From an uncultured Bacteroides sp. (GTDB lineage Bacteria; Bacteroidota; Bacteroidia; Bacteroidales; GCA-2748055), in the NCBI GenBank assembly GCA_964604655.1, contig CAZRZY010000001.1, positions 80 to 64,079 on the forward strand: a stretch of DNA of 64,000 nucleotides, given 5' to 3'. A program made the position numbers and the translations under genes. Below are positions 2,908 through 6,942 of the stretch, piece by piece (the stretch's first letter is position 1; every line of letters begins with the position of its first letter). The notes below the pieces were generated by a model, which made no database searches, had not been told where the DNA came from, and saw only the letters and a program-made list of their open reading frames with translations.

Positions 2908-3004
2908 GTACAGAGGTATCCATCCATAAACAATTCATCTTTCACAATTGTTTAGCTGACGGATGCCGGGATGGATCCGAAGTTTACTTAATTCCACTTT
3001 TCCC

Positions 3005-3730
3005 ATGTGTTTCACCATCGAGGTTCACCTGAACAGAAAAGCCATTGAAAACAGGTTTAAGGTGGACACCTCCAGGCTTTTCGAATTCGATTTCAATTAC
3101 TTCTACAAAGCGTTCACCCATCCCGCAATCCCGGTCATTTCGCAAAAGGAACCTCATCTTGCCATTCTCATGGATTGGGGACTTATCCCGGGCTGGTCTT
3201 CCGACCGGGATAAGGCCGAGCAAATAAGAAAAGGAACCTATAATGCAAGGGCGGAAACATTGCATGAAAAACCGGCATTCCGAAAAGCTTTTCAGCAGGG
3301 GAGATGCCTGGTCATTGCACATGGTTTTTTCGAATGGCAGCATAAAGAAGGGCAAAAGATCCCCTGGTACATACGCCTGAAAAATGAAAAGCCCTTCGTT
3401 TTCGCAGGGCTTCATGATACCTGGGCCGATCCTGCTACCGGTGAGATCCTGCAAACCTTCTCCATTGTCACCACCAGAGCCAATCCCTTGATGGAGCATA
3501 TACACAATACAAAAAAGCGAATGCCGGTCATACTTCCAGAAGCTCGTGAAATGGAGTGGATCCATGAAGAGATGTCCCTGCGTCAGGCGAGGCAGTTGCT
3601 CCTTCCGTTTGATGAAAAGGAACTCCATGCGCATACCATATCGCCCATGGTTTCCTCTCCAGGGGTGAAACCCGATGATCCAGCCATAGTGGAACCTTAT
3701 TCCAATCCCCCCTCAGAGGAGTTGTTCTGA
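3005..3730 (+). CDS. SOS response-associated peptidase (SRAP/YedK/HMCES family, abasic-site DNA-protein crosslink)
   Basis: I moved the start to the ATG at 3005 so the protein begins MC (catalytic Cys2). NARAET, GFFEW, IVTTRAN and KRMPVIL match SRAP family motifs. Confidence 0.85.
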   Translation: MCFTIEVHLNRKAIENRFKVDTSRLFEFDFNYFYKAFTHPAIPVISQKEPHLAILMDWGLIPGWSSDRDKAEQIRKGTYNARAETLHEKPAFRKAFQQGRCLVIAHGFFEWQHKEGQKIPWYIRLKNEKPFVFAGLHDTWADPATGEILQTFSIVTTRANPLMEHIHNTKKRMPVILPEAREMEWIHEEMSLRQARQLLLPFDEKELHAHTISPMVSSPGVKPDDPAIVEPYSNPPSEELF

Positions 3731-3871
3731 TTCAGATATTAACAATGACTATTCAAAAAGCACAATGCTAGTTGACTGAATGGGAAATTATTACATATTT
3801 TCGTTAACACATATTTAACCTTTTGTTAATAAAATCTGTTCATTCAATGTTCACTTCTTCGGTTCGGAAAA

Positions 3872-3903
3872 TTTGGACTGAAATCTCAAAGCGTATACAT
3901 TTG
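3872..3903 (+). promoter_or_regulatory. Bacteroidetes-type promoter (-33 TTTG / -7 TAnnTTTG) with no downstream ORF
   Basis: TTTG lies at 3872-3875, followed by a 20-nt spacer and TACATTTG at 3896-3903. The predicted transcription start is near 3908-3912, at the edge of a GC-rich structured block. Confidence 0.4.
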
Positions 3904-3907
3904 ATAA

Positions 3908-4326
3908 CATCAAGTGAGCGATAAAAGGCCACTCCGTTCTTTAAATGATGTGAGTCATTGCTTCGGGTCGCCCCGAAGCCTGAACACGAGTCACATGAGC
4001 AACTAACCAGGTATTGAAGTTGCTCTGCCGGTCCTCGGACCGGGCTGACGACTCTGATGCGGGAACTTCCCCCGGGTTGTTTCCGATGTCAACGTGGAAA
4101 CCGTAGAGTACCTGAAAACGCGGTGAAAACGGTCTTCAGTTGAGCATCTATCCCTGTCTCCGGACAAATGGATGCAAGTTGTCCGATTCGTCGGGCAGCG
4201 AAGGGAAAGTGAGGTTATGCTTCACCCTCCGGTCAAAATAACCGTAGCTTGACGCGAACTGGCAGCTACGGGTGCCAGCAAGCGGAATGGGAACCAGATG
4301 AAAATTTGGCTCCCATTCGTGTTTTA
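3908..4326 (+). ncRNA. Candidate structured non-coding RNA (~0.4 kb), family unknown
   Basis: The block has no credible ORF and is GC-rich between AT-rich flanks. It has many perfect stems: 3960-3967/3972-3979, 3997-4003/4019-4025, 4028-4033/4038-4043, 4079-4084/4096-4101 and 4242-4249/4264-4271. A terminal hairpin 4285-4292/4311-4318 is followed by GTGTTTTA. Confidence 0.45.
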
Positions 4327-4620
4327 CAGCCCTTCCATTCCGATCTTTTGACCAACTCCATTTTCACGGTTGCCAACGGGGATAAACGGTCTCCCAAAGC
4401 AGTGTTTTTTGTGCGAAGAGCTTTTTATTTTACAGCATATATATCTATTCGCAATCATCGTCTAAACATCTTAATCCTCCCATTACTAATAATTTGCGTC
4501 TTTAAATTTCGGATTGTTGATATCGAAAGTTTGAACAAAATCGCAGGAATTTGATTTAACTGTAATTTTATATATGTGCAAAACGCTGCAGCGGAGAAAA
4601 GAAATTTACAGGCAATACCG

Positions 4621-5952
4621 ATGATTAAGAAAACAGGTATTTTTATATCACTCTTCTTGGTATTTTTTTTCGGGGAGACAGCCATCTCCTTCTCCGATAA
4701 GGGATACCCCTCACTGCTTCAGGATGAGGAAATTCCATTTTCATTGCTGCTGGACAACCATTTTTCAGATTACGATGAAACGGAAGTGATTGACCGGAAG
4801 GTGGAGCATTTTATTTCGAGCTGGAGGATACAGGGGGCCAGTGTTGCCATCACGAAAGATGAACGGCTTGTTTACGCCAAGGGGTTCGGGGTGGCTAACA
4901 GCGAGACCGGTGAAACCGTTCAGCCGGGCCATCTCTTTCGTATTGCATCTGTCTCGAAGCTGATCACTGCTGTGGCAGTGCTGAAATTGGTGGAAAATGA
5001 GATCCTGGATCTGGATGATCAGGTTTTTGGACCTGAAGGTATTCTAAACGACTCCATTTTCCTGGATTACAGGGATCTTCGTGTGGAGCAGATCAAAGTC
5101 AAACATCTTTTGAACCATACGGCCGGCTGGTCCCGGTATTCGGGCGATCCCATGTTCAACTCCCTTTATATAGCCAGGAAAATGGAGGTGAGTCCCCCGG
5201 CAGGACTGGAGTACATTATTGCCTTTGCACTGGCCAATAGACTGAATTACAGACCCGGAACCAGATACAGTTATTCCAATCTGGGGTATGCCATCCTTGG
5301 TAAAATTATTGAGCGTAAAAGCGGAATGCCCTATCAGGATTATGTGGTGATGAACATTCTGAAACCGCTGGATATCCATGATATGCATATCGGCAAGAGC
5401 TACTATCATGAAAAATACCCGAATGAGGTCCGATATCACAGCAGTTCAGGAAGTATGACCGCCTATGACATAGACGGGTCGGGACAAAAGGTTCCCATAT
5501 TTTACGGAGGAAACCACATTGAACTCCTGGGACCTGCAGGAGGATGGGTAGCCTCGGCTCCCGAGCTGATCAAATTTCTGACCGCTATTGATGGATTTCC
5601 CGGCCAACCCGATATTCTGGGTCAGCCAACCATCGACCAGATGGCCGATCCCCACGAAGCCGGACGGGGTTTATTCGGATGGCGGGGAAGCAACCGGTAT
5701 GGTACCTGGTGGCGAACAGGCTATCTGACCGGATCATCGGCGTTGATGGTCCGGCAGAAGGACGGCTTGAACTGGGTGGTTATGATTAATACCAGTACCT
5801 TTAAGCATTCCAGGATACACAGGTATGTCTCCGGCATGATGTTCGGAGCTGTCAGCCAGGTAGAAAGCTGGCCTTTCATTGACCTGTTTTCCATGGAATC
5901 GGAAGAGCCGGAACCCATAAGCAAAATCCCTGCAACCAATCCAAAACTTTAA
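4621..5952 (+). CDS. Serine hydrolase, beta-lactamase/PBP (class C-like) family, membrane-anchored or secreted
   Basis: The SxxK motif sits in FRIASVSKLITAVAV, and YSNLGY is the Tyr-x-Asn region. I took the start at ATG 4621 (MIKKTGIFISLFLVFFF, a hydrophobic signal) rather than the GTG at 4576. Confidence 0.8.
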   Translation: MIKKTGIFISLFLVFFFGETAISFSDKGYPSLLQDEEIPFSLLLDNHFSDYDETEVIDRKVEHFISSWRIQGASVAITKDERLVYAKGFGVANSETGETVQPGHLFRIASVSKLITAVAVLKLVENEILDLDDQVFGPEGILNDSIFLDYRDLRVEQIKVKHLLNHTAGWSRYSGDPMFNSLYIARKMEVSPPAGLEYIIAFALANRLNYRPGTRYSYSNLGYAILGKIIERKSGMPYQDYVVMNILKPLDIHDMHIGKSYYHEKYPNEVRYHSSSGSMTAYDIDGSGQKVPIFYGGNHIELLGPAGGWVASAPELIKFLTAIDGFPGQPDILGQPTIDQMADPHEAGRGLFGWRGSNRYGTWWRTGYLTGSSALMVRQKDGLNWVVMINTSTFKHSRIHRYVSGMMFGAVSQVESWPFIDLFSMESEEPEPISKIPATNPKL

Positions 5953-6012
5953 CGACTTTCCTGCGCGTAAAAGGATTTTCCTTATATCTTTGATCTACCC
6001 TTGGTGTGCCTG

Positions 6013-6942
6013 ATGGAGCTTTCTTCGGTCCAATACATAGCGTCTTCCGATCTCACTGATTTTTTACCGGACCTCTTTATCACTACCCTGGGCTATGAAT
6101 CGCGCTGCACAACCATTGCCCGGTTAATCGAAAAGGTGCCATGCCGCAAGATAGCCCTTTCACGTACAGATCATGTAAGGGGGTTTGCATTCCAGCAGAA
6201 TAAAACCTACTATGAAGCGCAGCAATACGAAATAATCGCTTTAGAAAAGAGAGTGCCGGAGATGAAAGAGATTACCGGGACCATCTCCGGACCGGGAGAA
6301 GAGTTGAATATCCTGATGGATTGCACAAGCATGTCTCCCCGATGGTATTTTGAAATATTTAGCTGGTTTGCCGATCATACGGAAGGATATTCGAGGGTTA
6401 CTTTACGGATCGCATACACGCTTGCAAAATTCACCAACCAGGACCCGGTCAGAAAGGTCCGCCGACTTCGTGAGGTGGTCAAACCCGAACGTAACAGAAA
6501 AAGCAGCAAATCGGTTCTGATCCTGGGATTGGGGCATGAAAGAAGCGTCGGAGAGGCTCTGCTGAAAAGGGTGAAGTCCGATCGGCTTTACCTGTTCTAT
6601 GCCGACCCTCCTGTCGATAAACAGTTCGTGGAGAAGGTTTTTGTAAATAATCATGCGCTGATCAATGAGGTGCCCATCAGAAATCTGATAGCTTACCCCA
6701 TCAGAAACGGGCAGCAGATATATCAAAGTCTGATCGACATCATCCTGCCCCTGCGTAAGGATCATTCCATTACTCTGATACCTCATGGTCCGAAGATCTT
6801 CTCCATAGTAGCCATGCTTATATATGTGGGATACCCCGATATTCAGATCAGCCATCCCGAATTCAAGAAGCCTCCCGATGACGACCGCCTGCCCTGGGAT
6901 GAGCCTGTAGTTATCGATGCCCTCTTCGAGGATGACGATTAA
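6013..6942 (+). CDS. Hypothetical protein, no recognisable family
   Basis: This is a long ORF with coding-like composition and an acidic C-terminus (FEDDD). It has two beta-alpha-like halves (LFITTLGYESR ... NILMDCTSMSP, and SVLILGLGHERS ... ITLIPHGPK). The start is uncertain (TTG 6001 or ATG 6013). Confidence 0.5.
   Translation: MELSSVQYIASSDLTDFLPDLFITTLGYESRCTTIARLIEKVPCRKIALSRTDHVRGFAFQQNKTYYEAQQYEIIALEKRVPEMKEITGTISGPGEELNILMDCTSMSPRWYFEIFSWFADHTEGYSRVTLRIAYTLAKFTNQDPVRKVRRLREVVKPERNRKSSKSVLILGLGHERSVGEALLKRVKSDRLYLFYADPPVDKQFVEKVFVNNHALINEVPIRNLIAYPIRNGQQIYQSLIDIILPLRKDHSITLIPHGPKIFSIVAMLIYVGYPDIQISHPEFKKPPDDDRLPWDEPVVIDALFEDDD

Follow-up and report, generated by a model that had tools for sequence, protein, structure and literature searches.

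The stretch of DNA analysed here (hereafter the window) comprises 64,000 nucleotides (nt) of contig CAZRZY010000001.1 from an uncultured Bacteroides sp. Positions 3908–4326 of its plus strand are, almost certainly in our judgment, a genuine single-copy chromosomal gene for a structured noncoding RNA (ncRNA) of ~420 nt. A preliminary description, made from the letters of the window, had proposed a stand-alone, promoter-to-terminator structured RNA of ~0.4 kb belonging to no listed family, and this core claim is upheld by homologues at 81 loci, by covariation, and by negative searches with Rfam and ARAGORN. The architecture of the RNA suggests that it acts in trans as a folded three-dimensional particle, a reading to which we assign a probability of roughly 0.6.

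The gene-free block

The RNA lies within 890 bp of gene-free DNA between the SRAP gene (2963–3730) and a gene encoding a beta-lactamase-family hydrolase (start at 4621). The G+C content of the block at ~3900–4350 is 47–58%, compared to 26–37% in its flanks. The longest open reading frames (ORFs) within the block that start with ATG encode 28 and 26 aa. Those that start with TTG encode 54 aa (minus strand) and 101 aa (4249–4554), the latter exiting through the terminator into AT-rich DNA. None of these ORFs is kept in the homologues, in agreement with the earlier statement that the region contains no credible ORF and no ATG-initiated ORF longer than 28 aa. The predicted fold of 3905–4330 on the plus strand has a minimum free energy of −172.4 kcal/mol, which corresponds to a z-score of −6.7 against dinucleotide shuffles (z = −4.5 for the minus strand).

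Conservation and distribution

Homologous loci were gathered from genomes and metagenomes. With the SRAP protein as the query, species-representative genomes yielded 24 loci, each in a metagenome-assembled genome of Bacteroidales or Bacteroidota, and the block is located directly downstream of the SRAP gene in all 24 (nhmmer E-values of 1e-57 to 1e-134). A scan of metagenomes with a near-invariant 19-mer from the 5′ block of the RNA at 3911–3934 (GTGAGCGATAAAARGCCAC) yielded another 60 loci, of which 57 carry the full element and three are chance matches in unrelated DNA. The 81 loci thus obtained (24 from genomes and 57 from metagenomes) contain one copy each and represent 68 distinct sequences. 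The RNA is matched by nhmmer in every related locus, with E-values between 1e-57 and 1e-184. Occurrence in other genomic contexts was considered and rejected, since the metagenome scan returned the same syntenic context only, in addition to the three chance matches. A mobile or phage origin was also rejected: the 19-mer has no matches in viral contigs, and the RNA is present as one copy per locus at a fixed position.

Compared with the window copy, the RNA has a median nucleotide identity of 0.76; the values for the flanking coding sequences are 0.67–0.80 (0.67 for the ORF at 6001–6939, 0.69 for SRAP, and 0.80 for dinB). The RNA is therefore under purifying selection equal to that acting on the best-conserved local genes. 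When the downstream hydrolase was used as a protein search probe, the best 120 matches all came from the same clade, with at least 71% identity. The best reading of the genome and metagenome loci examined is that the RNA is restricted to one uncultured Bacteroidales lineage.

Secondary structure and covariation

The 68 distinct sequences were aligned over 484 columns (alignment A2). RNAalifold predicts 91 pairs from this alignment, 49 of them with compensatory changes. A refined, ribosum-weighted consensus contains 131 pairs in 28 helices, and was compared to column shuffles and to slid controls, in which the partners were moved by 1–3 columns. Under the refined consensus, 95.3% of the cells are paired, compared to 28–42% in the slid controls and 90.9% in the shuffles. 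Pairs changed on both sides number 67, compared to 20–32 and 29.7 ± 2.8, respectively; for both measures, none of 500 shuffles reaches the observed value. Compensatory cells number 393, compared to 51–85 in the slid controls and 110 in the column shuffles. The consensus structure also fixes the RNA on the plus strand, since G-U cells (1016) far exceed A-C cells (135). Folding of the alignment gives an energy of −238 for the plus strand and −193 for the minus strand. This assignment agrees with the promoter and the terminator, which have the same orientation as the RNA.

The stems are free to vary by compensation. Almost no change is seen in the terminator stem, in the junctions and several of the loops, or over the initial 24 nt of the core. 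Several near-invariant segments of 7–24 nt are predicted to be unpaired. The 5′ block CAAGUGAGCGAUAAAAGGCCACUC is identical in all 68 sequences at 23 of its 24 positions, and the remaining position varies in less than 10% of them. Exchanges within the stems are exemplified by the long-range helix P1, where the pair 3910:4252 is C-G in 41 sequences, U-G in 19, and U-A in 8, and the pair 3915:4247 is U-G in 58 and U-A in 10. Two inner hairpins are located inside the P2 domain, at 3944–3948/3955–3959 and 3960–3967/3972–3979. The latter has a GNRA-type loop in most relatives, and the column pair 69:80 of these hairpins alternates between G-C (42 sequences) and A-U (22). Similar exchanges are observed in the P5 sub-domain (columns 232:252; C-G in 56, U-A in 10), P8 (columns 289:302; C-G in 34, U-A in 22), and P11 (columns 410:421; C-G in 30, A-U in 22).

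The two most divergent homologues of the RNA, L027 and L055, have insertions exactly at hairpin tips (alignment A2 columns 57–62 and 145–156, in the P2b region and the P4 loop); those in the P4 loop are 11–13 nt long. Both homologues have other sequence in place of the blocks GUUGAGCA and UGCAAGU, and retain P1 and the terminator as well as the 5′ block and both strands of the pseudoknot.

Several of the helices that had been proposed from the window are recovered in the family. The helices GAGCAAC/GTTGCTC (3997–4003/4019–4025) and CCGGTC/GACCGG (4028–4033/4038–4043), which correspond to P3 and P4, and the portion of CTGGCA/TGCCAG at 4259–4263/4274–4278, which is part of P11, are all conserved with compensatory changes among the 68 homologues. 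The proposed hairpin at 3960–3967/3972–3979 recurs in every homologue at this position with differing sequences, such as GCAGCCGGGG-CAAC-CCCGGGUGC. The octamer AACCGTAG, noted as repeated at 4099–4106 and 4240–4247, is conserved in the family as well.

Two other proposed helices find no support. GTTTCC/GGAAAC (4079–4084/4096–4101) is pairable in just 6–47% of the homologues, and in the family its first strand is part of the variable hairpin P6. The helix CCGTAGCT/AGCTACGG (4242–4249/4264–4271) had been regarded as a competitor of CTGGCA/TGCCAG, such that the RNA might switch between two conformations. This helix has 8 bp in the window alone. One of its pairs forms in 4% of the homologues, and the invariant partner does not compensate for the changes in columns 390 and 394 of the alignment. 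The change at column 394, from G to A, suits P1 instead, where it converts a U-G pair into U-A. Because the competitor helix is not conserved, a two-state switch has no comparative support.

Pseudoknot

A pairing that was missing from the preliminary description connects the loop of P3 with the loop of P7 over 7 bp. The cells of this pairing are 98.9% paired, compared to 2–48% in the slid controls. A clean exchange from G-C to A-U is observed in six sequences, and this pair is broken in none. In a blind scan of column pairs, co-variation between two subclades obscured most of the signal, and the P3-loop/P7-loop pairing was the only one to survive; on this basis, further pseudoknots were rejected. 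Judged from the alignment, the pairing could be either intramolecular or intermolecular.

Promoter, upstream elements and terminator

Sequence conservation starts at ~3811 and ends at ~4335, where identity drops and variable-length insertions follow. The RNA is preceded by a promoter of the form TTTG-N20-TAnnTTTG, whose elements are invariant in 25 of 25 sequences and whose spacer is free to vary. The preliminary description had correctly placed TTTG, the 20-nt spacer, and TACATTTG at 3872–3903, and its view of them as a good Bacteroidetes promoter is confirmed by the match to the full consensus and by this invariance. The full consensus, TTTG-N18-21-TAnnTTTG, has three matches in the 64 kb, compared to 0.44 expected; one of the other two precedes the LexA-like gene.

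Two conserved elements are located upstream of the promoter. The first is an AT-rich palindrome with the family consensus TTATTAAC-N4/5-GTTAATAA, represented in the window by TATTTAAC-CTTTT-GTTAATAA. It occurs once in the 64-kb window and looks like a candidate operator for some regulator. The second is the direct repeat TGTTCA-N5-TGTTCA, which is the sole exact match in the window and may be a site for an activator or a response regulator. As both elements are conserved and operator-like, expression of the RNA is probably regulated.

At the 3′ end, the terminator stem has six pairs without any variation and six in which a single side varies, and is paired in 99.6% of its cells. The 14-pair stem and the GUGUUUU after it are conserved throughout the 68 sequences. 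The terminal hairpin that had been recognized at 4285–4292/4311–4318 is thus substantiated, being conserved with compensatory changes among the homologues. The coordinates of the RNA, its structural elements, and its signals are summarized in Table 1.

Table 1. Features of the predicted RNA gene and its control elements, in window coordinates.
Feature	Position	Strand	Remarks
Predicted RNA, ~419 nt	3908–4326	+	5′ end predicted from promoter geometry, 3′ end from the terminator U-tract
AT-rich conserved palindrome, operator-like	3812–3832	.	upstream of the RNA promoter; most positions invariant in 25 sequences
Direct repeat TGTTCA-N5-TGTTCA, putative site	3837–3853	+	11-bp period; ~20 bp upstream of the −33 element; conserved in alignment A1
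−33 element TTTG, Bacteroidetes-type promoter	3872–3875	+	invariant in 25/25 sequences
−7 element TACATTTG (consensus TAnnTTTG)	3896–3903	+	T, A, and TTTG positions invariant in 25/25 sequences
P1, 5′ strand UCAAGU	3910–3915	+	pairs with 4247–4252
Near-invariant 5′ block CAAGUGAGCGAUAAAAGGCCACUC	3911–3934	+	P1 5′ strand and conserved junction
P2 domain	3931–3991	+	stem 3931–3939/3982–3991 around two hairpins
P3 hairpin	3997–4025	+	conserved 15-nt loop UAACCAGGUAUUGAA; 6/7 stem pairs with compensatory changes
Pseudoknot strand CAGGUAU, in P3 loop	4008–4014	+	pairs with 4108–4114
P4 hairpin	4028–4043	+	4/5 pairs with compensatory changes; loop UUCG in most relatives, CUCG in the window
P5 sub-domain	4044–4140	+	long-range stem 4044–4052/4132–4140 enclosing P6 and P7
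P6 variable hairpin	~4055–4090	+	inside P5
P7	4093–4104/4120–4131	+	inside P5; conserved 15-nt loop
Pseudoknot strand GUACCUG, in P7 loop	4108–4114	+	pairs with 4008–4014
P8 hairpin	4144–4175	+	outer stem 4144–4148/4171–4175; UUCG-capped tip 4154–4158/4163–4167
P9 hairpin	4178–4199	+	UUCG cap; column pair 318:338 G-C in 47, A-U in 16
P10 hairpin	4205–4230	+	column pair 360:367 A-U in 40, G-C in 27
P1, 3′ strand GCUUGA	4247–4252	+	closes a multi-helix domain of ~340 nt
P11, 3′ hairpin outside P1	4253–4284	+	4253–4255/4282–4284 and 4259–4266/4271–4278
Intrinsic terminator	4285–4326	+	stem 4285–4299/4304–4318, 14 pairs, then GUGUUUUA; conserved in all homologues

The terminator is trailed by a spacer of variable length (0 to ~100 nt), beyond which additional conserved sequences are observed. 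A conserved TTGACn-N17-TAnAAA at 4344–4375 resembles a −35/−10 pair of the sigma-70 type, which is unexpected in Bacteroidota, whose main sigma factor recognises TTTG and TAnnTTTG. The invariant blocks TGTGCGAAGAG (4400–4410) and ATTCGCA (4448–4454) contain a 6-bp inverted repeat, GCGAA/TTCGC, with its arms ~38 nt apart. The repeat shows no covariation, such that an RNA hairpin is indistinguishable from sites in the DNA. The idea that another structured element is encoded downstream of the terminator, ahead of the hydrolase gene, was considered and rejected: the blocks are conserved and covariation is absent. Upstream of the hydrolase promoter, at ~4500–4545, are the conserved words CTATTAACA, GTTGATATC, and TGAAC, from whose consensus the window copy departs. 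These words resemble those in front of the RNA promoter (TTATTAAC, GTTAATAA, and TGTTCA), and in view of this likeness it is possible that the two promoters have a regulator in common.

Proposed mode of action

We propose that the RNA functions in trans as a folded particle, because its conserved nucleotides are concentrated not in the stems but in the junctions and in the internal and hairpin loops, and because a separate transcription unit encodes a compact, pseudoknotted, multi-branch fold. The RNA would be transcribed from its own full-consensus promoter, probably in a regulated manner, up to its own intrinsic terminator. In the folded molecule, P1 closes a multi-branch core of ~ten helices, several of them capped by UUCG or GNRA loops, and the 7-bp loop-loop pseudoknot would lock the P3 and P7 branches together, with P11 and the terminator hairpin placed 3′ of P1. 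Such a particle could provide a scaffold for one or more proteins or be their partner, or, with lower likelihood, bind a ligand or act as a catalyst. Compared to a folded particle, a regulator that works by linear base pairing seems less likely, as does a leader acting in cis.

Several observations weigh against this proposal. The argument for a folded particle that works in trans comes entirely from the architecture, and base-pairing seeds would be an equally possible role for the invariant 5′ block and the conserved loops. No candidate protein partner has been identified. The transcript and its ends are predictions, and the 3′ hairpin was not called by a generic terminator scan. Part of the raw covariation is phylogenetic, with many off-structure column pairs co-varying between two subclades. 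Lastly, the genomic context offers no functional clue, because the homologues are all from one lineage in which the gene order is frozen.

The RNA might instead be a cis-acting leader or attenuator of the operon formed by the hydrolase gene, the following ORF, and the E2 and E1 genes, sensing a signal and deciding between termination at 4285–4326 and read-through. This would account for its position, on the same strand as these genes and always upstream of them, for the terminator hairpin at its end, and for the further conserved blocks in the intergenic DNA up to the hydrolase start. However, the terminator is separated from the start codon by 295 nt, the spacer that follows it differs in length among loci, and the conserved blocks downstream carry promoter-like elements of their own. 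Moreover, no conserved alternative partner of the terminator stem was detected, the competitor CCGTAGCT/AGCTACGG not being maintained, which counts against a riboswitch as well. Typical riboswitch aptamers are also far smaller than the ~340-nt sensing domain that such a leader would have. We consider a cis-acting leader unlikely.

We would also give little weight to a trans-acting base-pairing RNA, whose invariant single-stranded segments would pair with mRNAs and whose structure would serve mainly for stability. Such an RNA would be expressed from its own promoter and end at its own terminator, as appears to be the case here, and the near-invariant segments predicted to be unpaired would be suitable for pairing with targets. 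However, to our knowledge, a molecule of ~420 nt with ~12 covarying helices and a pseudoknot is far beyond the bacterial base-pairing small RNAs described so far, and at least one pair of conserved loops serves intramolecular or RNA-RNA self-pairing instead of mRNA pairing. The folded particle remains the preferred reading.

Genomic context

The loci have a common gene order: dinB (minus strand), a repressor with HTH_3 and Peptidase_S24 domains (plus), a Lon N-domain protein (minus), SRAP (plus), the RNA (plus), the hydrolase (plus), an ORF that belongs to no family, and the E2 and E1 components of a 2-oxoacid dehydrogenase. This neighbourhood had invited the suggestion that the RNA is linked to DNA damage, as an SOS-induced functional partner of the dinB/LexA-like/Lon-N/SRAP cassette, and the SRAP gene is indeed immediately upstream of the RNA in 80 of the 81 loci. 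However, co-linearity extends over at least 10 kb in every locus, so that adjacency is not specific to SRAP; with the gene order frozen on both sides of the RNA, it is uninformative. In the remaining locus, L027 (Ga0307990_1003176; 1702–2697), the SRAP gene has been lost between the Lon-N gene and the RNA, and the RNA and its upstream region are kept.

The regulatory sequences point in the same direction. The divergent promoter region of dinB and the HTH_3/Peptidase_S24 gene contains two palindromes, TGATTA-N5-TAATCA (1388–1404 and 1411–1427), which are invariant across ~38 loci and are probably the operator of the LexA-like repressor. No counterpart is present near the RNA promoter (3800–3905), where other conserved elements are found, and an operator common to the RNA and the SOS cassette was rejected for this reason. 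The suggested link to DNA damage is thus unsupported, and we regard it as improbable.

The palindromes at the dinB promoter are unlike classical LexA boxes. Another palindrome, AAACAATT / AATTGTTT, is located at 2928–2935 and 2946–2953 in the divergent promoter region of the Lon-N and SRAP genes. The ORF directly after the hydrolase gene (6001–6939, 313 aa) is present in all related loci with 35–72% identity and has no match in Pfam or NCBIfam.

Known RNA families and coding potential

The window was compared to the 4227 families of Rfam 15, which include RNase P RNA, tmRNA, 6S RNA, SRP RNA, and riboswitches, as well as OLE, GOLLD, ROOL, raiA, HEARO, and the Bacteroidales and Bacteroides motifs. 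At gathering thresholds, no family matches anywhere in the 64-kb window (1–64000), and ARAGORN detects no tRNA or tmRNA in it. When the threshold was relaxed to E ≤ 10 for the region 3700–4650, two spurious matches were obtained, both outside the RNA, and none was found inside the RNA in seven homologous loci at E ≤ 1. The preliminary description had likewise reported no hallmarks of housekeeping RNAs or riboswitches, and the Rfam search that it had suggested as a check is consistent with this. A literature search by topic and by invariant sequence strings found no description of the RNA.

A divergent housekeeping RNA (RNase P RNA, tmRNA, 6S RNA, or SRP RNA) missed by the covariance models would fit the size of the RNA and its helix closing the 5′ and 3′ ends, which recall RNase P RNA or tmRNA in outline. 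The chance of this is very slight in view of the negative searches above and of the distribution of the RNA, which is found in one lineage and is not universal. The RNA finishes in a terminator hairpin and U-tract instead of an acceptor-like 3′ end. The RNA is best called a new class, of the general kind of orphan ornate bacterial ncRNAs and unrelated to the described classes in sequence and fold.

A degraded remnant of a coding gene, or an unannotated gene for a small protein, is effectively refuted: although the G+C content is like that of coding DNA and stop-free stretches of up to 144 codons arise by chance in some homologues, no frame is kept open across the 68 distinct homologues on either strand (median of 4–8 stops per frame), deletions relative to the window sequence, 81 in number, are never a multiple of three in length, a 3-base periodicity is missing from the column variability, translations of the block ORFs have no Pfam matches, substitutions in the helices are compensatory, and, unlike a decaying pseudogene, the block is as conserved as the neighbouring functional genes. 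The possibility of a coding remnant, which had been raised earlier as a potential objection, was rejected on these grounds.

Comparison with known systems

Large, intricately folded bacterial RNAs that have no assigned function are rare. The comparative support for the present example is strong, consisting of 68 distinct sequences, ~12 covarying helices, a pseudoknot, and clean gene boundaries. The lineage is known from metagenomes alone, where such RNAs are seldom sought. With an alignment and a structure in place, the RNA provides a new, well-defined target for RNA biologists, and the operator-like upstream elements offer a handle on the conditions under which it would be produced.

In architecture, and in architecture only, the RNA is similar to bacterial RNase P RNA: both are ~400 nt in size, with a P1 helix joining the ends of a multi-branch core, peripheral helices capped by GNRA or UUCG loops, and a long-range pseudoknot. 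However, the window RNA has no match to the RNase P covariance models at permissive thresholds, is restricted to one lineage, and contains an extra 3′ hairpin and a terminator outside P1.

The raiA motif and similar orphan ncRNAs also extend from promoter to terminator, were recognised by covariation, and have unknown functions. The window RNA is unrelated to them in sequence and fold, as judged from the absence of Rfam matches, and its distribution, one Bacteroidales lineage, is far narrower.

OLE RNA (ornate, large, extremophilic) of Bacillota is likewise a stand-alone, chromosomal, highly conserved multi-helix ncRNA of several hundred nucleotides, whose conserved nucleotides are concentrated in junctions and loops, and whose biochemical function was unknown when it was discovered. 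It is ~600 nt in length (PMC12054373). The window RNA differs in its size of ~420 nt, in its phylum, in the absence of sequence or covariance-model similarity, and in the absence of adjacent partner genes resembling oapA.

ROOL and GOLLD are large ornate RNAs with covarying kissing-loop interactions. Initially interpreted as tertiary contacts, these kissing loops turned out to bridge separate molecules within homo-oligomeric cages (PMC12286853). By analogy, the 7-bp loop-loop pairing of the window RNA could be an intermolecular bridge, or it could be intramolecular. In contrast to ROOL and GOLLD, the window RNA is smaller, has no covariance-model match, is present as a single copy at a fixed chromosomal position, has no link to phages (no viral matches to the 19-mer), and is located outside tRNA islands, there being no tRNA in the 64 kb.

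The RNA could belong to a novel kind of RNA machine, as opposed to a simple regulator: a compact ~420-nt particle that self-assembles via its conserved 7-bp loop-loop pairing, in the manner of ROOL, GOLLD, and OLE, or one with a catalytic or ligand-binding core, under dedicated transcriptional control. We put this forward tentatively, as a possibility well short of probable; if true, this machine would be hosted by uncultured sediment and anaerobe Bacteroidales, a lineage that is abundant. Earlier examples of large, intricately folded RNAs, such as RNase P, group I and group II introns, tmRNA, OLE, ROOL, and GOLLD, proved to be catalysts, cores of protein complexes, or self-assembling particles.

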